Below are positions 3,646 through 37,484 of a DNA stretch of 64,000 nt, piece by piece. A program made the position numbers and the translations under genes. The DNA comes from an uncultured virus (IMG/VR IMGVR_UViG_3300031998_000023) (Duplodnaviria > Heunggongvirae > Uroviricota > Caudoviricetes). The stretch's first letter is position 1. Each line of letters begins with the position of its first letter. The stretch lies in IMG/VR virus record IMGVR_UViG_3300031998_000023; one strand, given 5' to 3'. The notes under the pieces were generated by a model. It was not told where the DNA came from, ran no database searches, and saw only the letters and a program-made list of their open reading frames with translations.

Positions 3646-4443
3646 TTATCTTTGCATCATTTTTTCATTGAATAGCATTATTGTTTTTTTCATGTCATCA
3701 GGGAACTTTTCTTTGAATTGTTCCATTATGAAATGTGGTAATCCGTAATATGGCTCAGCAATACTACAAGCCATTGCTGCTATAGTGTCTGAATCCCCAC
3801 CAATCCATATTGATTTTCTTATACAATCAATGAAATCGTTACTATTTAAGAAGCAAATAATTGCTTCAGGTACAGTTACTTGGCATGTTGCATCGAATTT
3901 ATGCGCACGTCTTCCAATTTCATCCATTGGTAACGACAGATTATATTTGAAATCTTCTTCAAGAATGCGTTTCATATCTGCTTTTCCTGCGCCACTTCTT
4001 GCGAGGTATATTGCTTCAGCAATTGCCTGAGCACCTTTTATACCTTCTTCATGGTTATGTGTTACTTCGGCTGACTTTTTAGACAAATCAAGGCATTCTT
4101 CAAGCGTATTTGCGTAGAATGCACAAGGTGACACTCTCATACCTGCACCATTTCCAAAACTGTTTATTGGGTCATTGGAATCACTTAGAACCCATGTTCT
4201 AAATTTTCCGCCATATCCCGCATCAGGATAATTTGTGGCCCAATCTTTAAGGTATTCGGCTAATTCTTCTGATTTGCCGCCTGTACTAACAAGCCACTCC
4301 ATAATAGCAACGGTAAGCACCGAATCATCGGTGAACTTACCGTCTTTTAATATTTCTATGCTATCGGGGCTTTCTTCATGTGTATTATTCCACTCATATA
4401 TTGAGCCACAAAAATCACCAACTAAAGCACCAATGTATTGCAT
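3646..4443 (-). CDS. ADP-ribosylglycohydrolase (DraG/ARH family)
   Basis: GALVGD, FTDDSVLT, SFGNGAGMRVSP and GGDSDTIA motifs. Confidence 0.92.
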   Translation of the reverse strand: MQYIGALVGDFCGSIYEWNNTHEESPDSIEILKDGKFTDDSVLTVAIMEWLVSTGGKSEELAEYLKDWATNYPDAGYGGKFRTWVLSDSNDPINSFGNGAGMRVSPCAFYANTLEECLDLSKKSAEVTHNHEEGIKGAQAIAEAIYLARSGAGKADMKRILEEDFKYNLSLPMDEIGRRAHKFDATCQVTVPEAIICFLNSNDFIDCIRKSIWIGGDSDTIAAMACSIAEPYYGLPHFIMEQFKEKFPDDMKKTIMLFNEKMMQR

Positions 4444-5048: not shown

Positions 5049-6275
5049 TTAGTTATCTTGTTTATTTCTATCTGTTTTTTTATTGTTTTTTCTGTGGTGA
5101 TATGCTCTTTGCCTTTTCTTTTTAGGCTTTTCTTCCTCAGAAACAGTTTCTTCTTTCTTTTCTTGTGGCACACCTTCCATTTGAAGGCTTTCCTTTGTAA
5201 TACCAATTGTATCAACAAATTTTTCAAGTGTCAAGTCACAATATTCATCAATCCAATCGGTGATATAGTACAATTTCTTTGAACCTGCAATCAATCCAAA
5301 AATAATCGGGTCCTTTCTCTTTGCTCTTTCATACTCAGTTTCCTTGTATGATTTTTCCTCAGGGTCATAGTGAAGAACAACATAATTGTCAAAAATTTCA
5401 AGTTCATTGAGTTTTGAAATCTTGTTTACAACCTCTTGTGGAATCGGCTTTGCAAAGTTCTTGATATAGTCCAATGATAAGCCTTTTTCACACTTTTTGA
5501 TGAAATCAACAATTGTTTCCTCATCAATCACATAGTAATAACCTTCAGCAAAAAGCAAAGATTCATACTTGTTTGTAATAAGGCCCTTTAACAATTCTTC
5601 TTGAAGCGCTGTTTGACCCATATCAACGGCATTATGTAATGCTCTTAGGTAATTGCTAACCCTATCTTTATACGTGAAAGCGGATTCCTTAGATGTAGTC
5701 TTGACAAGTGAGAAGAACTTAATTGCATCAAATTCAAATTTTTCTTCTTCAGTAGTACTATTTGTCTTTTTGAATAAACGTGAAATCAGTTTACCAATAC
5801 GAGACTTGTTTTCTTCTTTTACTTCAATTGAATCATTTTTTTCTCCATTAGTAAAAATAAATGGATTTTTGTAATTTGAATCATATGCTGTATTTCCGAA
5901 AGAGCCGTAACCTGCCATGACATACTTAACGTTTTTTTCAACCAAAAGTCTTGTCATGTCTTTAATACCTGCTGATGCGATTTCATCAAAACTCAATCCT
6001 TCAGGAGTTTGATATAATGGAAGCCATCTTGTTCCAGAATCAATGCTTCTATCAACATCTTCATTAGTTAGTTCTTGAGATGGAGTTCCTATCTCATTTA
6101 AGCCAACATTATATATTTCGGCATAACTATATTTTGCCTCATCAGGGGATTCGGTTTTTTTTATTCCTTGTTCAGCCCTTTTCCATTTTGGTAATGTTTT
6201 GTTAATGGAAACGCCATCATCGAAAAGTCTAAGATGTTGTTTATCGTCTGTTAAAAGTTTTCTACTCATTGTCAA
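5049..6275 (-). CDS. Hypothetical phage protein
   Basis: 408 aa ORF in operon; conserved-looking C-terminal DPIIFGLI...LYYITDWIDEYCDLTL block. Confidence 0.7.
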   Translation of the reverse strand: MTMSRKLLTDDKQHLRLFDDGVSINKTLPKWKRAEQGIKKTESPDEAKYSYAEIYNVGLNEIGTPSQELTNEDVDRSIDSGTRWLPLYQTPEGLSFDEIASAGIKDMTRLLVEKNVKYVMAGYGSFGNTAYDSNYKNPFIFTNGEKNDSIEVKEENKSRIGKLISRLFKKTNSTTEEEKFEFDAIKFFSLVKTTSKESAFTYKDRVSNYLRALHNAVDMGQTALQEELLKGLITNKYESLLFAEGYYYVIDEETIVDFIKKCEKGLSLDYIKNFAKPIPQEVVNKISKLNELEIFDNYVVLHYDPEEKSYKETEYERAKRKDPIIFGLIAGSKKLYYITDWIDEYCDLTLEKFVDTIGITKESLQMEGVPQEKKEETVSEEEKPKKKRQRAYHHRKNNKKTDRNKQDN

Positions 6276-7122
6276 TCAAGTTTAATTCGTTAATTAAGTT
6301 ATTTCTATTTTCTTCATTTGTCAAATCACACCCATCAACGGCTTCCCATATGTGTCTTGTATATGAATTTTGATAGGCCATAACTAACTCTTCTGCGCTT
6401 TCATTACCAACAATATTAAATGTCTTTGTTGCTTTTTTAATGAATCTTCCAAATTTCTTTCCGTTATCGAATTTATTCCAATCAACATTTTTTTCTTGTT
6501 TAAGAAGTTTGATTTGTTCATCGGTATTCAATGACATAAGTTTTTTGTGTGGAAGATATGTCTGTGCAGTTTGTTGTTTACTGTTTCTAACACAGTCAAT
6601 GTTTCTGAACAATAGCCATGCCATGGCATCATTAGCGCTATCAACGTTCCATACTTTACAATCGAATTGGTAAAGCGGTCCGTTTTCGATTTCATCAATA
6701 CACATTTCAAGTACATTTTCAGCACTTGCACAAGATGGTATTGATTTAAGCCTTTCAATAGCCATTACTTGTGAAAATTTTGATGTGGCTAATGCTGCTA
6801 GAATGCTTTGCATTTTACACATTCTTCCGCCAAAGAAAACATCACCTTCAGGGTCATTTTTCCTGATAATCAATGAAATTTCATCGCTTTGTGTATAAGC
6901 GAATATACATCCCTGAACTTCTTTGCAAAGATATTTTGCCGTTTCGTTCATTGCTTCGATAAACGTATCATCGAAAGGCTTTTTAAACTTGTTCTTTATC
7001 ATCTTTGAAAAAGAACGGCCATCAATGTGTGCAATTATGTATTTGTCGGGGTCAAGAAAATAGTTAGCCGCTTTTTGGTAGGCATAACATTTTTCTTTTA
7101 AAGACATGTTTTCAGTATCCAT
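6262..7122 (-). CDS. tRNA(His) guanylyltransferase Thg1-like protein (3'-5' polymerase)
   Basis: HIDGRSFSK, KKPFD, YTQSDEIS, FFGGRMCK, FDCKV, DCVRNS motifs; start moved to the ATG just after the upstream stop. Confidence 0.9.
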   Translation of the reverse strand: MDTENMSLKEKCYAYQKAANYFLDPDKYIIAHIDGRSFSKMIKNKFKKPFDDTFIEAMNETAKYLCKEVQGCIFAYTQSDEISLIIRKNDPEGDVFFGGRMCKMQSILAALATSKFSQVMAIERLKSIPSCASAENVLEMCIDEIENGPLYQFDCKVWNVDSANDAMAWLLFRNIDCVRNSKQQTAQTYLPHKKLMSLNTDEQIKLLKQEKNVDWNKFDNGKKFGRFIKKATKTFNIVGNESAEELVMAYQNSYTRHIWEAVDGCDLTNEENRNNLINELNLIDNE

Positions 7123-7123
7123 A

Positions 7124-8023
7124 TTAAAATTCGTGAACAATTGTTAAATTTTGGACATCGTACTTCTTAGTATTAAACAGACTATTTGTTGTAAAAACCT
7201 CTGTAATAATACCACTGTCCATTCTTTCTTTTACTTTATTAATAGTACCATCACTGATACTATTTTCAACATGTGAAGCATATACATAAATGTAAGAGGC
7301 CCCGATTTCGTGAAGCGCATCTGCACTATATGCAAGTGTTCCACCGTATGAAATGATGTCATCAATCATAAGAACTGATTTTCCGCTAAGGTATCCTTCC
7401 ATGTTATCAATTCTTTCTCCTTTTTGGTTGAAGATTTTAAGGCCAATAATTTTTCCTGTTCTCCAATCACGGTCTTTTTCGCCATAGATAATGTCATATC
7501 CTTTAAGACGTGGCATATCTTTGTATCGTTTCATAGCGCCCGCATCAGGGAAGTAAATGATAGTGGTCCCATTATATACAGGCGTATCGTTTGTGGATTC
7601 GATGTCACAAAGAACTTCGTCAATCATCTTGTTAGGCGTAATTACCTTAACATTCTTAATTAATGCAGGTGTTACATCTGAATGTGGGTCGAAAATTTCA
7701 ACACGGTCAAATCCCAAGTAATTGATAAAGTCACAGAAATATTTCAAAGTGAAAACTTCGCAATCTGACTTTGTTCTATCCATTCTTGCGTTTGGCACAT
7801 ACGGAAGAACCAACTTGATTCTTGAATATACGTTAAACGTTTCTTTGATGTGCTTTGTTACAAAAAGTAACATTGAGATTTCGTAGTCACCCTCATAAAG
7901 CCATGTAATCTCAATTTCTTGATTCATTGGCCAATTAATCACATCTTCATTGAAGTTAAGTAACATAAGAGTATTGTCGGGAAAGTACTCTCGTTTGATT
8001 TCAAATCCGTTTACTTTAATCAT
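7124..8023 (-). CDS. Ribose-phosphate pyrophosphokinase-like protein (Prs family; candidate ADPR-PP synthetase Adps)
   Basis: FPD, LPYVPNARMDR, FDPHS, FPDAGA, MIDDIISYGGT motifs; NAD cluster context. Confidence 0.88.
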   Translation of the reverse strand: MIKVNGFEIKREYFPDNTLMLLNFNEDVINWPMNQEIEITWLYEGDYEISMLLFVTKHIKETFNVYSRIKLVLPYVPNARMDRTKSDCEVFTLKYFCDFINYLGFDRVEIFDPHSDVTPALIKNVKVITPNKMIDEVLCDIESTNDTPVYNGTTIIYFPDAGAMKRYKDMPRLKGYDIIYGEKDRDWRTGKIIGLKIFNQKGERIDNMEGYLSGKSVLMIDDIISYGGTLAYSADALHEIGASYIYVYASHVENSISDGTINKVKERMDSGIITEVFTTNSLFNTKKYDVQNLTIVHEF

Positions 8024-8048
8024 ATATGAAATTATTTAGTTCGTTATG

Positions 8049-8078
8049 AATATACAAATAATTTTTTATTTTCCAAAA
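8049..8078 (-). promoter_or_regulatory. Class I promoter motif upstream of the prs-like/thg1/ARH run
   Basis: TTGTATATT on the minus strand at 8049-8057 with upstream TTTG, matching more than 10 other copies. Confidence 0.6.
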
Positions 8079-8623
8079 TCCAAATATTCCCCGTAAATAA
8101 AATTAGGGTTATTTGCATCTTTTTCTGATGTTATAATGTTATCATAACTAATGTAATCTTGCCATGGGAAATCAATTGATTTATAATTGAATCCACGTTC
8201 TGATTCCTTGTTATAATAGTTATCGCATTTATATTGGAATATGGTGTTGTTTTTAAGTGTCAAGAATCCATGTAAAAAACCACGTGGAACAAAGAATTGC
8301 CTACGGTTTTCTTCTGAAAGGTATGCCCAATATGTTTCTCCATATGATTTTGAATCCTCACGTATGTCAACTATAACATCAATAACAGCGCCTTTTATTA
8401 CTCTGACCAATTTTGCCTGTGTAAATTCACCTGTTTGGCAATGCATACCTCTTAATACTCCATAAGAAGATAGTGATTGGTTGTCTTGTATAAATTTTAT
8501 ATCTGCAATTTTTTCTTTAAATTCTTTTTCATTGAATGATTCATAAAAATAGCCACGCTCATCCTTAAATATTTGAGGCTCTATTAAAGCAGGACCATCA
8601 TTAACTTTCCAAAGTGTATCCAT
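8066..8623 (-). CDS. rmlC: dTDP-4-dehydrorhamnose 3,5-epimerase
   Basis: DERGYFYESFN, QDNQSLS, GVLRGMH, QAKLVRV, FVPRGFLHGF, YKCDNYY. Confidence 0.95.
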   Translation of the reverse strand: MDTLWKVNDGPALIEPQIFKDERGYFYESFNEKEFKEKIADIKFIQDNQSLSSYGVLRGMHCQTGEFTQAKLVRVIKGAVIDVIVDIREDSKSYGETYWAYLSEENRRQFFVPRGFLHGFLTLKNNTIFQYKCDNYYNKESERGFNYKSIDFPWQDYISYDNIITSEKDANNPNFIYGEYLDFGK

Positions 8624-8987
8624 TTAAAATCAAATCTTGTTCTATCTCATCTCTTTGTTCTGAGATGTTATTCATTATTTCAACTAAATTATTGTATTGT
8701 CTAAGATATTTTGATGCTTTTCCAATTAATGAGCAATACACTTCATGCTCTTCTTTCAAATAAGACTTTTGTGCTTTTTCAAGATTTGTGAAGAAAAAAC
8801 CTATGTTGTCTAAATCTTTACATGCGTCATCAACCATCAATCCACCTGAATCATCAAGGTTTAGATATTTATATGTGTCATATACTTCAATGGATTCAAC
8901 AACATGGGTTTCAAGTCTAATTCCAAAATCAGACCCCTTATTTACAACATAGATGTTGTCACCTTCTTTTAAATCTTTGAATTTCAT
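8601..8987 (-). CDS. Hypothetical protein
   Basis: 128 aa ORF overlapping the rmlA stop and rmlC start. Confidence 0.7.
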
Positions 8988-9994
8988 TTTTCAATTCTTT
9001 GATTATATAATTTCATTAAATATTGTCCGTATTCGTTCTTTTCCATTTCCTTTGCAGCTGCGTGTATCCTATCCAATGTAAGCCAACCAGTGTTATATGC
9101 AATTTCTTCAAGGCAAGCTATTTTTAGCCCTTGTCTTTTTTCTATTGTTTCAATATAGTTGGATGCTTCTGACAAACTATCAAATGTTCCAGTATCAAGC
9201 CATGCAAACCCTCTATTGAAAATTTGTAATGAAAGACGGTTTTCAGTCCTATACCTTGTTTCAGATGGCTTACCGAATTTTTCTTCATCTAATAGTTCAC
9301 AGCATTGATACCCATTAAGTTTTTCGTATTTGTATATTGGGGTTATATAATTAATATATTTGTTGTTTACGTCAGTGATTTCTAATTCACCTCTTTTTGA
9401 AGGTGTAATTTCTTTTGCTATTTTCACAACATCGTTTGGGTAAAAATAAAGTCCAACAACTGCACAATCACTTTTTGGGTTTTGTGGCTTTTCTTCTATT
9501 GATTTTACTATAATTGGGTCATCTTCGTAAGTGTGCCCCTCATATTCAACAACTCCATATCTTTCAGGGTCATTTACATGGTATCCAAATACAGTTGCAA
9601 CATCAAAATTTTCAGCATTACTAACTGCTATTTTTAACATTTTTGAGAATCCTGGTCCATGGAAAATGTTATCACCAAGAACCAAACAAACAGAATCATT
9701 GCCAATAAATTCTTCACCAACAATAAAAGCATCAGCAAGACCTCTTGGAGATTCTTGTACCGCATATGTAAAAATAACACCAAATTGGCCACCATCACCA
9801 AGTAATCTTTTGAAAGATTCTGAATCCTGTGGCGTTGTTATAATAAGAATTTCACGAATTCCAGCCAACATTAGCACGGAAATCGGATAATAAATCATTG
9901 GCTTGTCATAAATTGGCAATAGTTGTTTTGATACGCCTTTTGTAATTGGATAAAGGCGTGAGCCTGAGCCACCTGCTAATACAATACCTTTCAT
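8984..9994 (-). CDS. rmlA: Glucose-1-phosphate thymidylyltransferase
   Basis: [62 protein letters not shown]. Confidence 0.97.
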
Positions 9995-10155
9995 TTCTTT
10001 TTGTTTTTATACCATTCTAAAAATTCTTCATATTCCTTATCGGAAATTTTTCTTGTCTTATCATCCTTGTGGGCACGATAAACAATGAACAAAATAATAC
10101 CACAAAAGAAAAGGTCACATAAAAATGAAATTAAGATGTAAGTTAAAATTGACAT
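9991..10155 (-). CDS. Small membrane protein (54 aa, below ORF-track cutoff)
   Basis: [30 protein letters not shown]...; ATGA overlap with the rmlA start. Confidence 0.6.
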
Positions 10156-10156
10156 G

Positions 10157-10837
10157 TTAATCTAATTTAAATACGTTGTTATAATCACTATATTTTCTAT
10201 ATATTTCTCTTGGAAGTAATATGTTTACAGGTGCTTCAGCACCTTTAAGCCAATATGGAACGTTAAATTTCAATCCATCTATTGTTACTGTATTATCCCA
10301 AGTATCAATGTTTGATATTATTTCATTTAATTGGCTTCTAAGTCTTTCCTTTGTCCAACCTATTGAGTTGAGATATTCATTAAGTCTTTCTTTTCTTACA
10401 ACAACAACCTCAGCCTCTAAAATATCATCAACATTTTCAATATTTCCACTTTTTGTTCTATCAATCCATATAAGTACAAGAGTGTCATTTATTACCTTGT
10501 CACTCATCCACCATCCATCACATCTTACCCAAGAGCCTTGTTGTTTAGTTCGCATGGATAACTCCAAGCAAAAAGTGTTCAAACGCTTTCTTTTGTTTTT
10601 TTCATTTGGGTATTGTTGCCCATCATTTATATATCTACTACCAGTTACTGCTTTCTCATCTACTATATAATGAAAGTGCCTACCCGTAAACTCACAATCA
10701 ACTCCCAACTTTTGTGTTTCTGGATTATCATTGTATTTGTAATCAGGAAATAGATGATAGAGATTACGTTCTAAAAACTCTCTTGCTATTTGTTCTTTTC
10801 GTTTGTCATCGTTTCGCCTATCCTCATACTCCATCAT
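10157..10837 (-). CDS. Putative PD-(D/E)XK-family nuclease-like protein
   Basis: QKLGVD...VDEK pattern. Confidence 0.45.
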   Translation of the reverse strand: MMEYEDRRNDDKRKEQIAREFLERNLYHLFPDYKYNDNPETQKLGVDCEFTGRHFHYIVDEKAVTGSRYINDGQQYPNEKNKRKRLNTFCLELSMRTKQQGSWVRCDGWWMSDKVINDTLVLIWIDRTKSGNIENVDDILEAEVVVVRKERLNEYLNSIGWTKERLRSQLNEIISNIDTWDNTVTIDGLKFNVPYWLKGAEAPVNILLPREIYRKYSDYNNVFKLD

Positions 10838-11291
10838 CTAACATTTCTAACTCACTTATTTTGAACCAATTGGTGCAATGTGTGTCTAAAAATGTCATAA
10901 GTCCACTGATTGAGCCTTCATTTTTACGACAAGAAATTTTTAGTCGTATTTTATCTCCTTCCTGTTCATAGTCATATATGTACCATGAATCATTGTATGG
11001 GTCGAAAATCTTAAATCCGTTGTATGAATAAGCTGATGTTGCGTTTATGTATGTTTTAGCCTGTGCTAATAATTTTCTATATTCTTCAACTTTTTCAATC
11101 TCATCTTTTGTATATGTTTCAAGAATTTTGTCACAGATGAAATTATATACAGGTGTTGACATGAAAATGGACTCATTCAACACACTTATTTTACTTTTAA
11201 TTGGTTCTAATAAAAACTGAACTTCTTGGAGTTGCTTTTGAAGTCTGTTTTGCTCACCAAGAAGTTCAATCATTTCCTTTATCTTATTCAT
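10824..11291 (-). CDS. Hypothetical protein
   Basis: 155 aa ORF overlapping its neighbours. Confidence 0.7.
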   Translation of the reverse strand: MNKIKEMIELLGEQNRLQKQLQEVQFLLEPIKSKISVLNESIFMSTPVYNFICDKILETYTKDEIEKVEEYRKLLAQAKTYINATSAYSYNGFKIFDPYNDSWYIYDYEQEGDKIRLKISCRKNEGSISGLMTFLDTHCTNWFKISELEMLDDGV

Positions 11292-11844
11292 TGATAACGT
11301 TAATTTGACATGACTTCATTGTTTCCAATGCAGCCTTATGCTTTTCAGGAGTTACACCTGCGCAACATGAAGCATCAACTGTGATGTCTGCCCTATCGTA
11401 AAGGATAGCCTTTTCCATCAATACATTGCTGATTACACAAATGTCAGTGCAGAATCCAACATATTCAATATCAAGGTTTCCTTGAAAATCTTCATCGGTA
11501 TCGAAGATTTCAGCCATTGCTGTTGAGCCAAATGTAGGCTTTTCAACACAAATCACATAAATACCTCTTTTTTCTGCTTGTTCAATGGCTTCTCTGATGT
11601 CTTTGTTGATTTTCCATCCATCACTGTTTTTAATACAGTGTTCTACGGGAAGCATTTTTCCCTCGTTTGTTGACAAGTAATCACCTTTATGCGTGTCCAT
11701 GGTATAAAGGATGAAATCACCGTTGAAGTCATTAATCTTTTTTACAATGTTCGGAACAGCCTTGATAGCGTCTTCGTTCCTCAAAGAACCGTCAATGAAA
11801 TCATTCTGACAGTCAATAATAACTAAAACTTTTTTCTTATCCAT
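11284..11844 (-). CDS. pncA: Nicotinamidase / isochorismatase-family cysteine hydrolase
   Basis: IDCQNDFIDGSL, DTH, PVEHC, EKPTFGS, GFCTDICV; start corrected from TTG 11874 to ATG 11844. Confidence 0.9.
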   Translation of the reverse strand: MDKKKVLVIIDCQNDFIDGSLRNEDAIKAVPNIVKKINDFNGDFILYTMDTHKGDYLSTNEGKMLPVEHCIKNSDGWKINKDIREAIEQAEKRGIYVICVEKPTFGSTAMAEIFDTDEDFQGNLDIEYVGFCTDICVISNVLMEKAILYDRADITVDASCCAGVTPEKHKAALETMKSCQINVINE

Positions 11845-11865
11845 AATAAAATGAATTTTTTCTTT

Positions 11866-12070
11866 AATATACAAGTTTTTATGAAAAAAAACAAATATTT
11901 CAAAAAAAATGAAAAAAAAATTGGTTAAGCACTAGTGCCCAGAGCAAGCTTTTATTGAAAATTTTAATCAAAATTAAGCTATAAAAATATATAAAAAAAT
12001 AGCTTTTATTTCAGGCACTAGTGCTCAAAATAGAATTTTTTGGTATTTTTGAAAATTTTATGTAAATTAG
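11866..12070. promoter_or_regulatory. Divergent intergenic control region with two GCACTAGTGC palindromes and back-to-back promoter motifs
   Basis: Palindromes at 11929-11938 and 12015-12024; TTGTATATT on minus at 11866-11874; TTTG...ATGTAAATT variant on plus near 12040-12068. Confidence 0.65.
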
Positions 12071-12089
12071 AAATAAAAAAAAATCCAAA

Positions 12090-12614
12090 ATGAGCACGTT
12101 TTTAGACCATATAACAGGCTTTTTCAGAAAAGTTGGACACTTTATCGCTAATTTGTATAAAGTGTCTAAATACTCTTTATTTAATAAGGTGAAATATAAA
12201 ACTATTGACGAATGCATAAATGGATATGCTTTCGACTTTGGGTATTTGTACAATTTGGAGTTGGCAAAATTGAAAGAAATGGTTGACTACTTTACTAAGT
12301 ATGGTATTTCTGCCGACAATGACTTATATATTAAGCAAATGAAATTGGCCATCAAGTTACTTCAAATTGTAATTAATGAGGAAGGATACCATTTTGAGCA
12401 TAATATAGATAACAATGTAAGTAAAAAATTCACTGATTTGAACAAATATGTGTGTGATGTAACCGTAAACACAAAAAATGCACACAGGTTTGTTCCTAAT
12501 GAGCAAGAAAGAGAATTTTATGTAAACAATTACCCACATGAACTTTACTTACTTAAAGCAACGCACTTGTATCACAAGTTGAGAGAATACTATGAGCAAA
12601 CTTGGTGGGATTAA
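12090..12614 (+). CDS. Hypothetical phage protein
   Basis: 174 aa ORF ending in WWD. Confidence 0.7.
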   Translation: MSTFLDHITGFFRKVGHFIANLYKVSKYSLFNKVKYKTIDECINGYAFDFGYLYNLELAKLKEMVDYFTKYGISADNDLYIKQMKLAIKLLQIVINEEGYHFEHNIDNNVSKKFTDLNKYVCDVTVNTKNAHRFVPNEQEREFYVNNYPHELYLLKATHLYHKLREYYEQTWWD

Positions 12615-12671
12615 TTTTGGTATTAAAAAAATAATTTGTATATTCAAGACGAATCTAAAAATTTAAGAAAT

Positions 12672-14216
12672 ATGTTTAATTGCAATGCAATGTTATTGAA
12701 GGACTTCTACAAAATGTGTCATTTATCTATGCTTGATAAAGGGATGACAAAATCTGTTTCATATTATACACCTAGAATGTCAAGGGTAAATAGATGGAAT
12801 AAAGTTGTTAACTTTGGGTTACAAGCGTTTTGTAAAGATTACCTTATTGATTATTTTAATGAAAATTTCTTCAATAGAAATGAAAACGATGTTTGTACTG
12901 AGTACAAATATTATGCTGAAATGACAATGGGTAAAGATGTTGTTGATGTTACCAAAATAAGAAAATTACATCAACTTGGCTATTTACCGATTGAAATTGT
13001 TTCTCTTCCTGAGGGGACTGAAGTTCCGATTCATTGCCCTATTTTTGGTATTACTAATACACATCCTGATTTTGCATGGCTTGGGCAAGCATTAGAGTCG
13101 TTAATTTCAGCAGAAATGTGGTATCCAATGATTTGTGCAACAGTTGGTCACACTTATAGAGAAATTGTTAATAAGTGGTATGACAAAACGTGCGATGACA
13201 ATATTCCACGTAGACGAGCTTTAGGAAATTTTGATTTTCGTGGCGACCAGGGTTTTGATGCTGCTTTGAAAGCAGGTGCAGGATGGTGTCTTTCATTTGT
13301 TAATACAGCAACAGTTCCTGTAATTCCTTATTTGGAAAAAAATTATAATTGCTGCTGTGGAAAAGAAGAAGTTGGGTTTGGTGCAGTTTCCACAGAACAT
13401 TTTGTTATGTGTAGTAATTCAGCAAAAGATATAAAAGACAATCCTGATTATGAGTTTTTTGATATTGACCCGTATCGTGAACGTATTTTTATAAAAAAAA
13501 TGCTAACAGAACTTTATCCTAATACTTCATTTAGTTGTGTTTGCGATTCTTATGATTATTGGAATGTTGTTAAAAACATTCTTCCTACACTTAAAGAAGA
13601 AATTTTAAGTCATAATGGATGTATGCTTGTGAGAGGTGATTCTGGAGACTGTGTAAAAGTTGTAACAGAAACTGTTTTTGAACTTTGGAAAATTTTTGGA
13701 GGTACTGTTAATTCTAAAGGATATAAAGTTCTTGATTCTCATGTCAAAGCACTTTATGGCGATTCAATTACAGTTCAACGTGCAGAAGAAATTTATGAAA
13801 TTCTTGAACAAAATGGTTTTGCAGCACAAAACGTTTCTTTAGGAGTTGGCTCTTTTTCAATGCATTGTATTGAAGAGGATGGTGTTTTAAAGCCGTTTAG
13901 CCGTGACACTTTTGGCGTTGCTATAAAAGCTTGTTATGCTGAATTTACAGATGAAAATGGAAACATAGAAAAACTTTCAGTTTATAAAGACCCTAAAACA
14001 GATAGAGAAAATGGTGGAGGAAATTTCAAAAAGAGCCAAAGAGGTTGCTGTATTGTGACTTATGAAAATGGTGAATACAAATTCACAGATGGGCATACTT
14101 GGGAAGAGGCGTATCTTTCTCCAAATTTGCTTAAACCGGTGTTTAGAAATGGTAAATTGATTGACCAAGAAACTTTATATAATATTAGGCAGCGTTTAAA
14201 TAAAAATAATTTTTAA
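12672..14216 (+). CDS. NAMPT/NadV-family phosphoribosyltransferase (candidate Namat-like ADPR-transferase, probably nicotinate-accepting)
   Basis: DFYKMCH, NFDFRG, STEHFVM, CDSYD, VRGDSGD, LYGDSIT, GVGS, RDTFGVAIKA, KDPKTD, KKSQRG; start corrected from TTG 12636. Confidence 0.92.
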   Translation: MFNCNAMLLKDFYKMCHLSMLDKGMTKSVSYYTPRMSRVNRWNKVVNFGLQAFCKDYLIDYFNENFFNRNENDVCTEYKYYAEMTMGKDVVDVTKIRKLHQLGYLPIEIVSLPEGTEVPIHCPIFGITNTHPDFAWLGQALESLISAEMWYPMICATVGHTYREIVNKWYDKTCDDNIPRRRALGNFDFRGDQGFDAALKAGAGWCLSFVNTATVPVIPYLEKNYNCCCGKEEVGFGAVSTEHFVMCSNSAKDIKDNPDYEFFDIDPYRERIFIKKMLTELYPNTSFSCVCDSYDYWNVVKNILPTLKEEILSHNGCMLVRGDSGDCVKVVTETVFELWKIFGGTVNSKGYKVLDSHVKALYGDSITVQRAEEIYEILEQNGFAAQNVSLGVGSFSMHCIEEDGVLKPFSRDTFGVAIKACYAEFTDENGNIEKLSVYKDPKTDRENGGGNFKKSQRGCCIVTYENGEYKFTDGHTWEEAYLSPNLLKPVFRNGKLIDQETLYNIRQRLNKNNF

Positions 14217-14271
14217 AATGCTTTGATTTTTTTTCAAAATATCATATATTTATATTAAAGTAGTATATAAT

Positions 14272-15174
14272 ATGGGAAAAAAGAATTGGACAGATAACGA
14301 AGTAAAAATTTTATATGAAAATTTTCCTGATGGCGGAATATATAAATGTATGGAATTATTACCTAATAGAAAAAGAAGCCAAATAAAAGCAAAAATTGAT
14401 GCTCTTCATATAAAGTCAAATCATCGTGATAAATGGACAGAAGAAGAAAATCAAAAGTTAAAAGAAGCTTGGGAAACATATTCAATGGAAGAATTGTTGA
14501 ATGCTTTTCCTGGAAGAAGTTATCAAAAAATACAATTACATGCAAATTGGCTTGGATATAGTTCAAAAACAGATAGGAAACGAAAATGCGATTTATCTTT
14601 TTTAGATTTAAATAATTTAACTAAAGAAAATGCATATTGGTGGGGATTTATAATGGCAGATGGACATATTAGTAAAAGAGGCCAAATTGTCATACAATTA
14701 AAGAATGTTGATGAAAATCATCTTCAAAAAATAGCGTTTCATTTAAATGGAAATATTAAAAAGGTAAAAAATGATTTTGTTAGGCTTGCATGTAATGACA
14801 TAAAAAAAATTACTGAATGGAGAAGTATTTTAGAAATGAATGAAAGTGCAAAAACATATTTTCCTCCTTCATTAAAAATATTTGAGCCTGAAATTATTTA
14901 TTTTTTTATTGGATTTGTTGATGGTGATGGGTGTATATGGAAAAGTAAAAATTATCCATTATTAAAAATTGAATTACATGCTTCATGGAAAGAAAATCTT
15001 GATTTAATTGCAAAAATTTTAAAAGAAAAATATGGGATAATTTCCGTAAAAACAAAAATATCAAAAAAAGGAACTTCTGTTTTAACAATAGAAAACAGAA
15101 ATGATTTAATTAACATTTTAAAATATGCTAAAGAAGTTGAATCTTTAGATAGAAAATGGAATAAACTAATTTAA
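14272..15174 (+). mobile_element. Free-standing LAGLIDADG homing endonuclease with N-terminal Myb-like repeats
   Basis: YWWGFIMADG and FFIGFVDGDG motifs; WTDNE/WTEEE repeats; more AT-rich than flanks. Confidence 0.85.
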
Positions 15175-15234
15175 ATTTATGAATAATAAGTAAACTATTT
15201 ATATAATCAATAAGATTGTATAAAATAGTTCAAC

Positions 15235-15402
15235 ATGAAACTTGTAATTGAGCAATGTGATGAGAAGTGGATTATAATGCTCCATGACATGCTTGGAAGA
15301 CGTAGATATAACAATTTGGATTTTGATTCAAGGGATGATGCTCTTGACTATCTTACAAACCAATTTAAGAATGATAACGATATATTAAATTCAATAGTAT
15401 GA
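15235..15402 (+). CDS. Small hypothetical protein (55 aa)
   Basis: MKLVIEQCDEKW...; preceded by ACTATTTAT; ATGA overlap with the next gene. Confidence 0.55.
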   Translation: MKLVIEQCDEKWIIMLHDMLGRRRYNNLDFDSRDDALDYLTNQFKNDNDILNSIV

Positions 15403-15800
15403 GAGAAGATTTCAACGAACATGTATCATATTGGAAATCACAATTTGCAGAAATGAAAGAAGCCTATAAGACTCTTTTCTGTGAATTATATGGCTTTGAT
15501 GTAAATGATGCATATTGGACAGGAAATGTTCTTGAAGTTGCTGACTATTTCTTCGGCCTATATGATATAATGTATGCTGTAAATACGCCGGTACCTGAGG
15601 AACTTCTTTTCAGATGGTATGATTACAGTCTAACATTGGTTGAATATTCTCTTGGAGATAGCAAACTTGAAAATTTTGTAAGAGGTCATAGACCTTATTC
15701 AGAAGAGAGTATCACAAAATTACGTGAACTTCAAAGTGAATTTACAAAATCAAAGATAGCACTTGACGATTTTTTAAATGAATTGAGAAATGGAAATTAA
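15399..15800 (+). CDS. Hypothetical protein
   Basis: 133 aa ORF in operon. Confidence 0.7.
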   Translation: MREDFNEHVSYWKSQFAEMKEAYKTLFCELYGFDVNDAYWTGNVLEVADYFFGLYDIMYAVNTPVPEELLFRWYDYSLTLVEYSLGDSKLENFVRGHRPYSEESITKLRELQSEFTKSKIALDDFLNELRNGN

Positions 15801-16254
15801 AATTATAGACGGTAATTTACTTGACACAAATGCAGACCTTATTTTACATCAGGTCAATTGTCAAGGGGCCATGAATAGCGGCGTTGCTAAGGCAATCAGA
15901 GAAAAATGGCCTATTGTATTTGAAGTGTATAGGGCTTTTTGCAATAGCGAGGGACAACGTTTAGGCGTTTGCCTTCCTGTAAAGATAAATGATACTCAAC
16001 GTGTTATTAACATGTTTTCACAGGATAAGTATGGATATGACGGAGAAATGTACACATCATATGATGCCGTAAATACTTGCCTTAGAAAAACAAGGGAGTA
16101 TTGTGAAAAGAATAACTTGAAAACAATATCGCTTCCGTATAAGATGTGCTGCTGCCGTGGCGGTGCTAATTGGGATGTAATAATGGCACTAATAAAGGCT
16201 AATTTTGAGTCATCGGATATAACAATTGAAATTTATAGATTAGACAAAGATTGA
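15790..16254 (+). CDS. Macro domain protein (ADP-ribose binding/hydrolase, TARG1/DarG-like subgroup)
   Basis: GNLLD, ILHQVNCQGAMNSGVAKAIREKWP, INMFSQ, LPYKM..RGGANW. Confidence 0.88.
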   Translation: MEIKIIDGNLLDTNADLILHQVNCQGAMNSGVAKAIREKWPIVFEVYRAFCNSEGQRLGVCLPVKINDTQRVINMFSQDKYGYDGEMYTSYDAVNTCLRKTREYCEKNNLKTISLPYKMCCCRGGANWDVIMALIKANFESSDITIEIYRLDKD

Positions 16255-16282
16255 AAAGAGCGTTCAAATGAACGCTTTTTTT
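16255..16282 (+). terminator. Intrinsic terminator
   Basis: AAAGAGCGTTCA-AA-TGAACGCTTTTTTT. Confidence 0.75.
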
Positions 16283-16332
16283 GTTTTTATGAATTTAATT
16301 TTGTATATTTTAACAAATAAATTTTAAGTAAT

Positions 16333-17391
16333 ATGTCAGAAAAATTAACTAAAAGACAAGTTCTTGTGGACCTTGGATATGAAGACACTGTTGTTTTTGA
16401 AAATCCAAGTTATGATAACGCAATTATCGGTACTGATGAAGAAGGCAGAGCCATTTATTCTTATGATTTGATGGTTGAATGCTTAATGATTGAAGATGGA
16501 ATGGACTATGAGGAAGCATGTGAGTTTATTGATTACAATGCTGTAAGGTCACTTCCTTATATTCCGAATCATCCTATTATTCTTTATAATAGTGGAATTT
16601 TCAATGATGAAATTTATGAGGAAAGGTATTTCAGAAATAATTTTGATGCCGTAAAGGAATCAGAGAAAGTCATCAAATGGATTAAGGAATGGTTCGATAA
16701 GAATGGTCCTGATTGCAATGCTATTGTTGGTATGAGTGGTGGTAAGGATTCAACTATTGTCGCTGGCCTTTGTGTCAAGGCTCTTGGCAAAGACAGGGTT
16801 ATTGGAATTTCAATGCCTGACGCTGGCCAAGGTATTAATGAAGCAGATAAGATTTGCGAACATCTTGGAATCAAGTATTACTGCATTCCTATTGATGGAG
16901 TTACTGGCGCATTGAAATTCTCATTATCATTAAACGGTGATAAGATTTCAGAGCAAACCGAACAGAATATTCCTCCAAGAATCAGAATGGCTACTCTTTA
17001 TGGGTTTGCACAATCTCACAATGGCCGTGTAATGGGTACATGTAATGCAAGCGAAAATTACGTTGGCTATTTCACAAGATACGGTGATGGCGCTTCTGAC
17101 GTTGAACCTCTTGGTAATTTTACTGTTGCAGAAGTAAAGGCTATTGGCCACGCAATCGGCATTCCTTATAAATGGGTTGAGAAGATTCCTGATGATGGAC
17201 TTCCGAACAGCTGCCCTGATGATGAAAAGTTTGCAAAGTGGGGGTTCAGTTATGCTTTGCTTGATAAGTACATTGCAAAAGGTACAACAAGCGACTCTGA
17301 AACCGACAGAATTATTAGGGAAAAGCACAATCAGACCAAGTTTAAACTTGGAATGGGTGAAGTATATGACCCTGATAAATACCAAATTTAA
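16333..17391 (+). CDS. nadE: NH3-dependent NAD+ synthetase with an extra N-terminal domain of about 90 aa
   Basis: GMSGGKDS, NIPPRIRMATLY, GTCNASE..VGYFTRYGDG, KIPDDGL, DD..F..WGFSY. Confidence 0.92.
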   Translation: MSEKLTKRQVLVDLGYEDTVVFENPSYDNAIIGTDEEGRAIYSYDLMVECLMIEDGMDYEEACEFIDYNAVRSLPYIPNHPIILYNSGIFNDEIYEERYFRNNFDAVKESEKVIKWIKEWFDKNGPDCNAIVGMSGGKDSTIVAGLCVKALGKDRVIGISMPDAGQGINEADKICEHLGIKYYCIPIDGVTGALKFSLSLNGDKISEQTEQNIPPRIRMATLYGFAQSHNGRVMGTCNASENYVGYFTRYGDGASDVEPLGNFTVAEVKAIGHAIGIPYKWVEKIPDDGLPNSCPDDEKFAKWGFSYALLDKYIAKGTTSDSETDRIIREKHNQTKFKLGMGEVYDPDKYQI

Positions 17392-17410
17392 TTTGGCACG
17401 ATTTTTGATA
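17392..17410 (+). promoter_or_regulatory. Sigma54-like -24/-12 motif (class II; about 9 copies in window)
   Basis: TTTGGCACGATTTTTGATA, 24 nt upstream of the ligase ATG. Confidence 0.65.
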
Positions 17411-17434
17411 TACAATAATTAAAATTTAAATTCA

Positions 17435-18094
17435 ATGAAATATCCAAGAACATATCATTTGCCGTTTTCACCTGGTACTACGAGTGATGACAGAATATTG
17501 CATGGTGATTGGTTTGCCTATTATAAAGGCAAAGAGGTTGTATTTACCGAAAAACTTGACGGTGAAAATACTGCCATGAACGTTGTTGATGTCTATGCTC
17601 GTTCACATGGCGCACCAACACGTTCACCTTGGTCACGTAATCTTTGGGACCCATCGTGTGGACTGTATTGGCAAATCAAGCCATATATTGGTGAGAACGA
17701 GACACTTTATGGTGAAAACCTTTATGGCGAACATTCAATACATTATGACAAACTTCAGGCTTATTGGCATTTGTTTGGAATTAATGATGGCGAAAGATGG
17801 TATGGATGGGATGAAGTTAAAGAATTTTCAAAAATAATCGGAGTTCCACATGTTCCTGAACTTTTAAGGACTGTATTGAATGATGAGTCAGAAGTCAAGG
17901 CAATAATTGATGAAATAATGACACATCCATCAACATACAACGACACTGAAAAAGAGGGCGTTGTTATGAGACTTACCGATTCGTATGGAATTGATGACTT
18001 TCCTAATTGTGTATGCAAGTGGGTTAGACCTCATCACGTCCAAACGGATGAACATTGGACCCGAAATTGGAAAAAAGCAGAACTTATCTATTAA
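17435..18094 (+). CDS. RNA ligase family protein
   Basis: KYPRTYHLPFSPG, TEKLDGEN (motif I), GEN, EGVVMR, KWVR. Confidence 0.88.
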   Translation: MKYPRTYHLPFSPGTTSDDRILHGDWFAYYKGKEVVFTEKLDGENTAMNVVDVYARSHGAPTRSPWSRNLWDPSCGLYWQIKPYIGENETLYGENLYGEHSIHYDKLQAYWHLFGINDGERWYGWDEVKEFSKIIGVPHVPELLRTVLNDESEVKAIIDEIMTHPSTYNDTEKEGVVMRLTDSYGIDDFPNCVCKWVRPHHVQTDEHWTRNWKKAELIY

Positions 18095-18105
18095 ATACAA
18101 TAACT

Positions 18106-18702
18106 ATGTACAAATTTGTTAAAATAGCAGACAAGAATAACAAAGAATCAGGAACTTGGTACTTTGTGCCAAATTCTATTGAACAGGTTCAAGAACATTT
18201 TGAAAAGATTTTCGGACAGGAAATCAAGGCAGGTGTAAAGGATGAGATTGAAAGAAGTATGTATCATCCCACAACTGCATGGAGGCAAGCCGTTGATATT
18301 ATGAACAGCCTCTACCAAGAGCCTTGGATTTTTTCAGCAATGAAACTTGAAAATCAGGTTCTTCAAGATAGAATTAGGTTTTTTGAAGAGGGTAAGCCAA
18401 TGTATCTTGCAAACGGAGTTATTCATTTTTGGCCATCTTGGGATTTGTACGAAATCGTAGATGAGGTTGAATTGGAAGAACTTGAATACCCAAGGGAAGC
18501 CCAATTTCATCTTGAAGAGGTTAGGTATATGCAGTGGGATATGCCTGGTTTGACAAAGGGTAGCCATTGGTATGCCAAAATTGGTAATCGTGATGTTAAA
18601 GATAAAGATGGTAATATGAAGTGGAACACCAAGAAAGAGGCTGAAAAAGCTGCTGAATGGTTCTGCAATTACCTCAATCATAAAACATATTTTGGGTGGT
18701 GA
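18106..18702 (+). CDS. Hypothetical protein
   Basis: ORF 18055..18702; probable start MYKFVK after the ligase stop. Confidence 0.65.
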   Translation: MYKFVKIADKNNKESGTWYFVPNSIEQVQEHFEKIFGQEIKAGVKDEIERSMYHPTTAWRQAVDIMNSLYQEPWIFSAMKLENQVLQDRIRFFEEGKPMYLANGVIHFWPSWDLYEIVDEVELEELEYPREAQFHLEEVRYMQWDMPGLTKGSHWYAKIGNRDVKDKDGNMKWNTKKEAEKAAEWFCNYLNHKTYFGW

Positions 18703-19076
18703 TAACAGTTTATAACAAAACAGTTGAAGACTATTCCACGTGTCCAAATAATTATTATATTGGCCGTGGCAGCATCCTTGGGAATCCTTACACGCATAAG
18801 CCATTACAAGGTACAATGGCCATATATCATACAAGAAACCGAGAAGAGGCTATTGAACGATATAGTGGGTACTTTGATTTAATGTACGAGCGTGATGAGG
18901 ATTTCAAGGCTGTTGTTGATGATATATACGAGAAATACAAGAAAGGCGAGGATGTTTACCTTGCTTGCTACTGCAAACCTGAGCCGTGTCATGGTGACAT
19001 TATAGCACAAAAGTTGCAAAAAAGACTGCTCAGGGAAAAAATAATAGAGGCAAAAAAATTGAGAGAAAAAGAATAA
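18696..19076 (+). CDS. DUF4326-like protein
   Basis: YIGRGSILGNPY...LACYCKPEPCHGD. Confidence 0.85.
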   Translation: MVITVYNKTVEDYSTCPNNYYIGRGSILGNPYTHKPLQGTMAIYHTRNREEAIERYSGYFDLMYERDEDFKAVVDDIYEKYKKGEDVYLACYCKPEPCHGDIIAQKLQKRLLREKIIEAKKLREKE

Positions 19077-19091
19077 TTTAAAATAACAACA

Positions 19092-19526
19092 ATGAAATCT
19101 TATAAAATTTACCTTGCATCATCTTTAAGTCTTGATAAGAGAGACAAAATGTTTGAGGCAATTGAATACCTAAGAAGCATTGGGCATGATGTGTATGCAC
19201 CTGTTGAGCACAAAATTGCAAATGCTTGGGATTATCCAAATGATGAATGGGGCCTTATGGTGTTTGAAGATGATATTAAGGCAATAAAAGAATCAGAGAT
19301 TGTTGTTATGCTTTCATACGGAAGAGATTCCACTGCCGGTGCTAATTGGGAGAGTGGATATGCTTTTGGACTTGGTAAGAAGATTATTCTTGTTGAAATG
19401 ACAGATGGCGTTATGTCTCTTATGGTTGCAAACGGAAGATATGCAACTGTTAAGGGGTTGGATGGGTTGAAGTCATATGATTGGGATAAAATGCCTCCTA
19501 TGAGAACAACGACAGAACAGAAATGA
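19092..19526 (+). CDS. Nucleoside 2-deoxyribosyltransferase / nucleotide N-glycosidase family
   Basis: IYLAS, DIKAIKESEIVV, GANWESGYAFGLGK. Confidence 0.82.
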   Translation: MKSYKIYLASSLSLDKRDKMFEAIEYLRSIGHDVYAPVEHKIANAWDYPNDEWGLMVFEDDIKAIKESEIVVMLSYGRDSTAGANWESGYAFGLGKKIILVEMTDGVMSLMVANGRYATVKGLDGLKSYDWDKMPPMRTTTEQK

Positions 19527-20845: not shown

Positions 20846-21100
20846 ATGACAGACAAAGTTATGACATTCAAGCATACAAAAGATGGTATGCTGACAGCTG
20901 AGAATCAAAGAGGTGAATTCCTTTTAAAGAACGAAATGCTTGGCGTTCTTCACGAAATGATTGGAGAAAAAGAAAGAGTTCTTGCAAATTATTCAAGTGA
21001 AGATGACACAAGGAAAGATGAAGATTGGTTTAAGCTGGCTAAGACAAAATACGAAAGTCAATTAGAAGTGTTGAAAGAAGTTAAAAGATTATTATACTAA
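20846..21100 (+). CDS. Hypothetical protein
   Basis: 84 aa ORF in operon. Confidence 0.6.
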   Translation: MTDKVMTFKHTKDGMLTAENQRGEFLLKNEMLGVLHEMIGEKERVLANYSSEDDTRKDEDWFKLAKTKYESQLEVLKEVKRLLY

Positions 21101-21783
21101 TGAGTTTAAGACATTACGATAGCATACCGAGAATACAGGACTACACAAGCCTAAATGGTGAAATGGTTTCTGGCTATAACAAGTTAGATGGCCAAAATTT
21201 TTGTGTTTGTTATAGGCCAAAACATAAGATTTGGGGGCCTTGTGGGTCTCGTACCCGTACAGTTGATGAAAACGATGAACAATTCGGCAATACTGTAAAA
21301 TGGTTCAATAATTCAAATTATAAAGCCATTTTAGAAAACATTGTCGCTAACAATAGAGGTAAAAAGCAATTGTTTAATGGCGTTGATGAGATGACATTCT
21401 ATTTTGAATGGTATGGAGAAAACTCATTCGCAGGTAGGCATCAAGAAGGTGATGAAATGCACCTTGCTCTTACCGATGTTTTCATAAAGAAAAGAGGGTA
21501 TATTCAACCACGTGATTTTGATGCTCTATTCAGAGATAAAGGAATTGAGTTACCAGACCTAATATACTATGGAATTCTGAATATGGATTTGGTCAACAAG
21601 ATAATGGAAAACGATTGGACCCAAGAAGGCTGTAATTTTCCGAATGTAAAAGAGGGTGTTGTGTTCAAAAGAACAACTTTGCTTCCTGGCCAGCGCAGAC
21701 CTATGGTAAAGGTTAAAACAAAATGGTGGCTAAATAAACTTCACTCCATGTATAGTGAGGAGGAATGTAAAATATTGGAGTAA
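21100..21783 (+). CDS. RNA ligase-like nucleotidyltransferase
   Basis: NKLDGQN, FEWYG, EGVVFK, KVKT. Confidence 0.75.
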   Translation: MSLRHYDSIPRIQDYTSLNGEMVSGYNKLDGQNFCVCYRPKHKIWGPCGSRTRTVDENDEQFGNTVKWFNNSNYKAILENIVANNRGKKQLFNGVDEMTFYFEWYGENSFAGRHQEGDEMHLALTDVFIKKRGYIQPRDFDALFRDKGIELPDLIYYGILNMDLVNKIMENDWTQEGCNFPNVKEGVVFKRTTLLPGQRRPMVKVKTKWWLNKLHSMYSEEECKILE

Positions 21784-37286: not shown

Positions 37287-37484
37287 ATGAACGGAAAAAG
37301 ATTAACGCTACAGCAATGCCATATATGCGGAAAAGTTATAAGTGGTACTGCAAATCTTATAAGACATATTAAGTCTTGTAAGAAAAAAATGTGTGAATCT
37401 TGTGATAATGAAGAAACTTGTAAATATAAATTTTGGTCATTAAATTGTCCGTTAAAAAATGAAAATAATATTCTTGGATATTGA
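37287..37484 (+). CDS. Small zinc-finger-like protein
   Basis: CHICGK...LIRHIKSC; CESC..C. Confidence 0.45.
   Translation: MNGKRLTLQQCHICGKVISGTANLIRHIKSCKKKMCESCDNEETCKYKFWSLNCPLKNENNILGY

Follow-up and report, generated by a model that had tools for sequence, protein, structure and literature searches.

A 64,000-nucleotide stretch of the IMG/VR virus record IMGVR_UViG_3300031998_000023 (hereafter the window, G+C ~32%) carries genes for a ribose-phosphate pyrophosphokinase-like (Prs-like) protein, a nicotinamidase-like protein (PncA), a NAMPT-family transferase and a nicotinamide adenine dinucleotide (NAD+) synthetase (NadE). All four open reading frames (ORFs) were found on two divergent arms around one intergenic gap (Table 1), as described in a first-pass annotation of this DNA. 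What that annotation said of the genes, their layout, the key residue of the transferase and the missing adenylyltransferase stood, whereas its claim of a class I promoter for each gene did not: a sigma-70 promoter scan of 11700-12800 gave 6 sites against 7.1 +/- 2.9 in shuffles, no excess. No alternative genetic code was needed for the window. The module is carried by a large uncultured phage of the gut or rumen; relatives are found on IMG/VR contigs 43 to 217 kb long, and a near-identity DNA search with positions 7000-17500 found no match in 50,697 GenBank phage records. We think it probable, with modest confidence, that the module is a nicotinate-type (deamidated) variant of NARP1, a phage pathway of NAD+ reconstitution that consists of Adps and Namat in phages SPbetaL1, Bas63 and ICP1 (bioRxiv 10.1101/2024.02.11.579819; PMC12774641; PMC13586617).

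Table 1. Features of the module and its surroundings, in window positions
Feature	Position	Strand	Remark
Thg1-like gene		-	last in the listed leftward arm, after the Prs-like gene
Prs-like (Adps-like) gene, 299 aa	7124-8023	-	proposed ADP-ribose pyrophosphokinase
rmlC	8066-8623	-	dTDP-sugar gene, between Adps-like gene and pncA
rmlA	8984-9994	-	dTDP-sugar gene, between Adps-like gene and pncA
Two small ORFs		-	no annotated function; leftward arm, after the PncA-like gene
PncA-like gene	11284-11874	-	nicotinamidase-like, isochorismatase family; start of leftward arm
Divergent intergenic region, 215 bp	11875-12089		separates both arms; from the ORF map
ORF without assigned function	12090-12614	+	opens rightward arm
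NAMPT-family (Namat-family) transferase gene	12672-14216	+	frame open from TTG 12636; ATG 12672, the likely start, agrees with relative L003
GCA codon	13308-13310	+	codes for Ala where Namat has Asp215 and human NAMPT Asp219
LAGLIDADG homing endonuclease gene	14272-15174	+	free-standing; directly 3' of the transferase gene, interrupts rightward arm
Small ORF		+	between LAGLIDADG and Macro genes
Macro-domain protein gene, Poa1p-like	15790-16254	+	candidate ADP-ribose-1''-phosphate phosphatase (Adpp-like)
NadE gene, NH3-type, 352 aa	16333-17391	+
RNA ligase gene		+	rightward arm, after NadE

On alignment and modelling, the transferase is a Namat relative with a predicted intact donor site and an altered base pocket. 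Namat (9w5w/9w5x) was its best phmmer match among PDB sequences, with 339.8 bits (E 2e-100), followed by HdNadV (276 bits), Xanthomonas Nampt (130) and human NAMPT (108). Namat was also the best Foldseek match (TMq 0.87, root-mean-square deviation 2.0 A) of an AlphaFold2 model with a predicted local distance difference test score (pLDDT) of 90.9 and a predicted template modelling score of 0.90. The Foldseek entry titles name 9w5w/9w5x as 'Namat in complex with NAD / nicotinamide' and 9ke8 as 'HdNadV', and the 9w5w sequence, compared by eye, equals the translation of SPbetaL1 Namat. On the NAMPT/NadV equivalog NF006629 the window protein scored 403.5 bits, just under the cut-off of 405, and SPbetaL1 Namat 593.7. 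Searched with the PncB-type nicotinate phosphoribosyltransferase profiles as well (TIGR01513/TIGR01514), it matched NF006629 only, and the window ORFs scanned held no further PF04095 protein.

The nicotinamide-binding Asp215 of Namat is replaced by Ala in the window. In the phmmer alignment 'LSFVNTATVP' stands opposite 'LSFTGTDTIP' of 9w5w/9w5x and 'TSFLGTDTIP' of 9ke8, and the register of the replacement, first called from the letters of the sequence, proved unambiguous; the STEH, DFY and DFRG motifs are kept, as had also been noted. In the 150 best representatives of 50%-identity clusters the site held Asp in 90, Glu in 2, Ala in 36, Ser in 17, Val in 1 and a gap in 4, and in the 120 closest clusters (at least 71% identity) it was Ala in 120/120. 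A comparison of 92 acidic with 55 Ala/Ser/Val sequences, the window included, confined the systematic differences to four positions (SPbetaL1 numbering). Position 187 was His in 90/92 sequences of the Asp/Glu type and in 0/55 of the Ala/Ser type; position 213 was Gly in 91/92 against 2/55, where Lys or Asn mostly took its place; position 215 was Asp or Glu in the one type and Ala, Ser or Val in the other; and position 242 was Ala in 91/92 of the former and Ser in 51/55 of the latter. The window accordingly bears the signature G-N-A-S in place of the canonical H-G-D-A (H187G, G213N, D215A, A242S). Conserved in both types were D13, Y15, R40 (R or K), F189, R192, H245, R306, D308, G360, D361, G390, S391, the aromatic residue at 392, T398, R399 and D400, which are the catalytic, ribose-phosphate and adenine-clamp positions.

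The Namat structure paper (PMC12774641) gives D215 and A242 as nicotinamide contacts, with a hydrogen bond from Asp215 to nicotinamide. Their human NAMPT counterparts, and those of the two other positions, are H191, G217, D219 and A244 by offset from the catalytic His, HDF and GTD motifs. A review table (PMC4919578) enters D219S as 'switch the substrate affinity', and H191R, G217R and A244M stand there as changes that keep inhibitors from binding. The replacing side chains of the Ala/Ser type (Lys or Asn, Ser, Ser) can donate hydrogen bonds and would suit a carboxylate. The same residues bear on an alternative in which nicotinamide, or another base, remains the substrate of the transferase, NAD+ is its direct product as in NARP1, and PncA with NadE is a separate and merely linked salvage pair. 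The catalytic and donor-site residues are all kept and the module genes are scattered among unrelated genes in the window, both of which fit this alternative. Against it, the four-residue pocket change runs through all 55 Ala/Ser sequences, at the frequencies given above, and includes two nicotinamide contacts; D215A lowered the NAD+ output of SPbetaL1 Namat 8.1-fold; PncA would take away the nicotinamide substrate; and in Phass-1, the phage locus L005 and 64/80 bacterial loci the four genes are packed into tight operons, often with overlaps. We regard continued use of nicotinamide as quite improbable.

The adenine selectivity clamp of Namat comprises an Arg/Lys (SCL) and the motif GSX-phi-X-phi-X-phi-TRD (SCH), in which positions 3 and 7 are aromatic. 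The window protein has the Arg40 equivalent and a Phe at position 3; at position 7 stands a Cys, after which come a 9-residue insertion and F-S-R-D. The motif GSFTYQYNTRD accordingly reads GSFSMHCIEEDGVLKPFSRD in the window clade, where the insertion, modelled as a beta hairpin (pLDDT ~85), displaces the second clamp aromatic (Y396). Other Ala/Ser lineages, including Phass-1, carry the canonical clamp GSYTYQYVTRD, exact in some, or a close form. In a Clostridia gene 58% identical to SPbetaL1 Namat (L347, G053:C80:1-3075), Ala215 and Ser242 occur together with Gly213 and the exact canonical clamp, making it a possible intermediate pocket form. Three canonical Namat homologues (P0161, P0200, P0244) have an intein-like insertion of ~300 residues inside the clamp motif (GSF / C...SHN / TYQMNTRD), and many other family representatives align in 2 or 3 stretches, which suggests that insertions are frequent.

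Full-length alignments of the Prs-like protein gave 40% identity to SPbetaL1 Adps and 32% to ICP1 Adps. On the Prs profile TIGR01251 it reached 100.7 bits, under the cut-off of 113 and close to the proven Adps enzymes of SPbetaL1 (106 bits) and ICP1 (98 bits); the phage family phrog_619 gave 201 bits. A FastTree phylogeny was built from 40 randomly drawn canonical and 30 Ala/Ser-associated phage proteins, the named references, 8 bacterial operon proteins (see below) and 8 cellular Prs. Rooted on the eight cellular Prs, which were monophyletic with a support of 0.965, it placed the Ala/Ser-associated proteins inside the Adps radiation, where the SPbetaL1 clade is their sister group and ICP1 Adps branches closer to the base; only a small group (L105, L110, L111) fell elsewhere within the Adps clade. 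We therefore take the window protein, by its place in the tree, to be an Adps relative and not a housekeeping Prs. The Osterman preprint reports no product from ribose-5-phosphate with SPbetaL1 Adps. The markers F18, R87 and F92 from the ICP1 structure were uninformative as a residue test; because F92 is not kept even in SPbetaL1 Adps, identity was judged by the tree. Both the Prs-like protein (positions 72-220) and the transferase (positions 379-535) match phrog_12872, a family of 547 positions, which points to fused Adps-Namat proteins in some phages.

The PncA-like ORF codes for 196 aa from a TTG; Met at residue 11 would give a start at 11844. It matched PF00857 (E 6e-17), and its PDB relatives include the nicotinamidases/pyrazinamidases 1ilw, 3o90 and 3pl1. 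Aligned with 1ilw, it presumably keeps the Asp that we assign as catalytic, the D-x-H...H motif assigned to the metal site and the Cys of 'CTDICV'. NadE scored 161.8 bits on PF02540 and 155.3 bits on TIGR00552 (cut-off 63.65). Its synthetase domain starts at about residue 104, after an N-terminal extension of ~100 aa (window 16333-16650) that matches phrog_13182, a family without assigned function; this part is fused to NadE in the window and forms a separate small ORF in L003 (2962-3222) and L011 (12258-12518). The Macro protein scored 22.3 bits on PF01661 and 134 bits on phrog_335 ('phosphatase'); of its homologues, which occurred in 1114 phage records, some bear the annotation Poa1p-like Appr-1''-p processing. 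Homologous Macro genes lie between or beside Adps and Namat in canonical NARP1 loci, and the architecture of Adps, the Macro phosphatase Adpp and Namat is known as NARP1-AP (bioRxiv 10.64898/2026.01.28.702374). Like these Macro genes, the 'hyp139' genes of canonical NARP1 operons recur in Ala/Ser modules. The 'hyp139' family (120 to 139 aa; no Pfam match, phrog_1238 66 bits) is absent from the window, lies within operons of both types (L008:9784-10203 (-), L019:9583-9945, L005:11461-11850) and might belong to the RyDEP family (bioRxiv 10.64898/2026.05.28.727677).

An enzyme adenylylating nicotinamide mononucleotide (NMN) or nicotinic acid mononucleotide (NaMN) had been reported missing from the window, and none of the 76 window ORFs scanned with Pfam (20 + 56), which cover part of the genome, matched the NadD/Nmnat family PF01467; Nmnat, PnuC and NadR were likewise not found in the window. 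Nor did PF01467 match anything in Phass-1, whose genome is complete, in a relative that is 98% complete or in two further contigs. These searches bear on a hybrid route in which nicotinate and phosphoribosyl pyrophosphate (PRPP) would give NaMN, NadE would act as an NMN synthetase and an adenylyltransferase would finish. The second-best PDB relative of the window NadE, 3fiu (E 2.8e-27), which we take to be the Francisella NMN synthetase, speaks for this route, as does a 415-aa ORF with a weakly NadM-like N-terminus in one relative (61% complete), which scored 28 bits against cut-offs near 400 and lies 56 kb from the module. The best NadE relative is the archaeal-type 2e18, and PMC3376133 describes archaeal M. 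jannaschii NadE as free of NMN synthetase activity. With no adenylyltransferase in the window, Phass-1 or the 98%-complete relative either, we consider the hybrid route highly improbable.

The association of the altered pocket with pncA and nadE was examined in the 10-kb neighbourhoods of 240 loci, drawn from the window, from GenBank and from five scans of IMG/VR; 3 of the loci have no transferase. PncA and NadE were each found in 0/153 Asp/Glu loci. Among the 84 Ala/Ser loci both were present in 80, NadE only in 3 and PncA only in 1, a 4.5-kb contig. Deduplication left 189 distinct sequences, and clustering at 70% identity 83 clusters, of which 11/11 of the Ala/Ser type and 0/72 of the Asp/Glu type had PncA and NadE nearby. 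Across phages, loss of the Asp went together with pncA and nadE, the pattern that the first-pass annotation had proposed looking for. The usual order in Ala/Ser modules is PncA, Adps, transferase, 'hyp139' or Macro, and NadE on a single strand, and in the complete Phass-1 genome all five module genes overlap one another. The Prs-like gene adjoins the transferase gene in relatives and lies 4.6 kb from it in the window. Single-protein locus queries (P0133, P0145) found no relatives in IMG/VR, and alignment queries were used in their place.

A FastTree phylogeny of the Namat family (140 sequences, 12 dropped for coverage <80%, unrooted) placed all H-G-D-A types in one clade and all Ala/Ser types outside it, Ala and Ser having been exchanged several times within the variant group. 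The association is one ancient split, kept over divergence down to 31% identity, and not a series of independent switches. When a bona fide Nampt was sought as an outgroup in 300 genomes from the class of one operon-bearing bacterium, only 4 NAMPT-family genes were found, all of the Ala/Ser type. The tree therefore stays unrooted, and we make no claim on the ancestral pocket.

The 50,697 GenBank phage records contained the transferase family in 2017, the Prs-like family in 1399, NadE in 48 and the module-type PncA in 7. Taken in reverse, 2/7 records with a PncA homologue had the module and the other 5 were fragments with PncA alone. On one of these, a gut 'Bacteriophage sp.' fragment (L346, MT835572.1 19283-22786), the PncA homologue is directly followed by a 485-aa PncB-like ORF (PF04095 profile positions 4-181), a pair that would be a classical PncA-PncB and not a Namat module.

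The same genes occur in bacteria. When one genome per species was scanned, 394 stretches came up; the 80 best of them were all of the Ala type, with the four genes as one operon in 64/80, and came mostly from assemblies of gut and rumen Clostridia. The operon of cultured Konateibacter massiliensis has transporter and two-component genes around it on a 3-Mb scaffold and is therefore chromosomal. Five genomes carrying the operon were searched for other NAD genes. Canonical PncB was present in 5/5 (495 to 584 bits, cut-off 297), as was canonical Prs (157 to 336 bits), the operon's own Prs-like gene staying below the cut-off at 98 to 111 bits; NadD had matches in 5/5, above its cut-off in 3/5, and a second, long NadE was found in 3/5. 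With a PncB and a Prs of their own, these bacteria do not have the operon as their sole Preiss-Handler route. An NrtR gene (NUDIX plus NrtR winged helix) lay within 1.5 kb of 43/60 complete bacterial operons and of 0/240 phage loci. NrtR responds to ADP-ribose; it also controls classical salvage genes. Some bacterial operons have a NadR-like gene (PF01467 + AAA_28; L272:3500-4504) or a PnuC transporter gene (L270:10565-11002) as neighbours, which places them in wider NAD-salvage neighbourhoods. As the gene set works as an operon of Clostridia, often beside NrtR, phages probably share the module with their hosts, and since it is chromosomal there, it is not solely a phage counter-defence.

The remodelled nicotinamide pocket together with the linked nicotinamidase and NAD synthetase suggests that NAD+ is probably rebuilt from ADP-ribose (ADPR) via nicotinic acid. 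In the proposed route PncA would deamidate the nicotinamide set free by NADase defences to nicotinate, and the Adps-like enzyme would pyrophosphorylate ADPR to ADPR-PP, the Macro protein perhaps having turned ADPR-1''-phosphate into ADPR beforehand. The variant transferase would then join nicotinate and ADPR-PP directly to nicotinic acid adenine dinucleotide (NaAD), which NadE would amidate to NAD+ with ATP and ammonia; an adenylyltransferase would be unnecessary. All substrates and products named here are predicted from sequence. The grouping of the first enzyme with Adps, the Namat-derived pocket, the co-occurrence and the lack of NadD/NMNAT in Phass-1 and the 98%-complete relative argue for such a four-enzyme route, much as first sketched for this DNA; for the accompanying idea that NaAD may resist NADases we found no evidence, and it forms no part of our proposal. 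We lean slightly towards the further view of the transferase as a new enzyme that would act as a nicotinate ADP-ribose transferase (nicotinate + ADPR-PP -> NaAD + PPi). It would define a self-sufficient four- to five-enzyme pathway about as diverse as canonical NARP1 in metagenomes and common to gut/rumen phages and gut Clostridia, in the latter recycling ADPR under NrtR control.

Several observations weigh against the proposed route. The condensation of nicotinate with ADPR-PP to NaAD is not a known reaction, and removal of nicotinamide would relieve the product inhibition of some NADases, of no obvious benefit to the phage. The review table cited above lists human NAMPT D219A as a loss of activity, and the Asp is no absolute barrier, since crystal structures of wild-type human NAMPT with nicotinic acid exist (6ta0, 6ta2). 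According to the Osterman preprint, Namat can use PRPP in vitro. The displaced clamp aromatic of the window clade, the 3fiu relationship of NadE and the weak NadM-like ORF belong here as well. So do the PncA homologues that have no Namat in the available sequence (L011, L015 and the 5 GenBank fragments). A single deep branch on an unrooted tree makes the perfect co-occurrence count as about one evolutionary event rather than many, and without a bona fide Nampt outgroup the Ala/Ser clade could predate the preference of Namat for ADPR-PP.

The main rival draws on several of these points. It is ordinary Preiss-Handler salvage on a NAMPT scaffold, in which the Prs-like enzyme would make PRPP, the transferase NaMN, a host NadD would convert NaMN to NaAD and NadE would finish. 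PncA, Prs, a nicotinate transferase and NadE amount to that pathway minus NadD, which the hosts have in the proportions given above; Namat-family enzymes accept PRPP, NrtR also governs classical salvage, and the clamp motif of the window clade is broken by the insertion. On the other side, the Prs-like protein groups with proven Adps and not with cellular Prs, and falls under the Prs cut-off; the operon-bearing bacteria already own PncB and Prs; genes linked to ADPR (Macro, 'hyp139') occur in the same module; and the clamp residues R40 and F392 are kept, with the exact GSYTYQYVTRD in some Ala/Ser lineages. Owing to the use of PRPP by Namat enzymes and the unrooted Namat tree, we still allow for Preiss-Handler salvage and judge it unlikely.

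Few anti-phage strategies are as common as depletion of NAD+, which phages are known to answer mainly by NARP1. If the proposed route through nicotinate holds, a second branch of NARP1 via nicotinate and NaAD would add a new enzyme reaction to NAD biochemistry. It would explain a large, unannotated family whose genes now bear the labels 'nicotinamide phosphoribosyltransferase' and 'ribose-phosphate pyrophosphokinase'; of the 150 nearest clusters at 50% identity, about one in three has the Ala/Ser pocket. Gut Clostridia would then recycle ADP-ribose into NAD+, and the recognition of phage counter-defence genes in gut and rumen viromes would change. With PncA in only 7 of the 50,697 GenBank phage records, surveys based on isolates miss the module.

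Around the module, three features had been overlooked in the first-pass annotation, namely the Macro gene between transferase and NadE, the LAGLIDADG gene and the rmlA/rmlC pair between the Prs-like gene and pncA. The LAGLIDADG gene has a 66% identical copy at the same position in the relative L003 (L003:11649-12545), and the rmlC/rmlA pair also accompanies the module in L002, L007 and L010. An ADP-ribosylglycohydrolase gene (window 3646-4443 (-); PF03747 112 bits, weak DraG/Tri1-like matches) lies 2.7 kb past the Adps-like gene on the same arm; it encodes another ADPR-linked enzyme, which could free ADPR from modified targets. An RNA-repair-like set of a Thg1-like gene, two RNA ligases and a HAD_SAK_2 phosphatase surrounds the module (window 6262-7140, 17435-18094, 21100-21783, 37459-37941), and a DUF4326 gene (18696-19076) and a nucleoside 2-deoxyribosyltransferase gene (19092-19526) are also nearby.

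No description of a nicotinate-type NARP was found in the full-text literature; supplements lay outside this search and may already list PncA or NadE. The texts on NARP1 (preprint), aRES/Adpp (preprint), Namat, Adps and RyDEP held nothing relevant on NadE, PncA or NaAD, and the NARP3 paper general mentions only. Among known systems, the window module resembles NARP1 in its pair of Adps-family and Namat-family proteins, its location in a phage, the Namat fold of the transferase and the retention of the catalytic His, the ribose-phosphate contacts, the clamp Arg40 and the aromatic residue 392. It differs from NARP1 in the replacement of Asp215 by Ala, the changes at H187, G213 and A242, the clamp-helix insertion, the company of PncA and NadE, seen at none of the 153 canonical loci, and the predicted transferase product, which is NaAD here and NAD+ in NARP1; in the window, moreover, the genes lie on two divergent arms and not in one operon. 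With NARP1-AP it shares a Poa1p-like Macro gene, predicted to encode a phosphatase, inside the module, whereas the pocket is altered and PncA and NadE are added. PncA, NadE and NaAD as the predicted penultimate intermediate recall the Preiss-Handler pathway (PncA, PncB, NadD, NadE), although the window has neither a PncB-type enzyme nor NadD and pairs a NAMPT-fold transferase with an Adps relative. NARP2 (Nampt + Nmnat, phage KVP40) and NARP3 (PnuC + NadR; PMC13464706) are likewise phage routes restoring NAD+; they use other substrates, and no counterpart of their Nmnat or PnuC/NadR was found in the window. Finally, in human NAMPT D219S (Khan et al. 2006, as given in Table 2 of PMC4919578) the same Asp is replaced and the substrate preference reportedly switched, and 17/150 natural representatives have Ser at this site; that mutant was engineered, by a single substitution, in a PRPP enzyme, whereas here four natural changes are found in a lineage of the ADPR-PP type.

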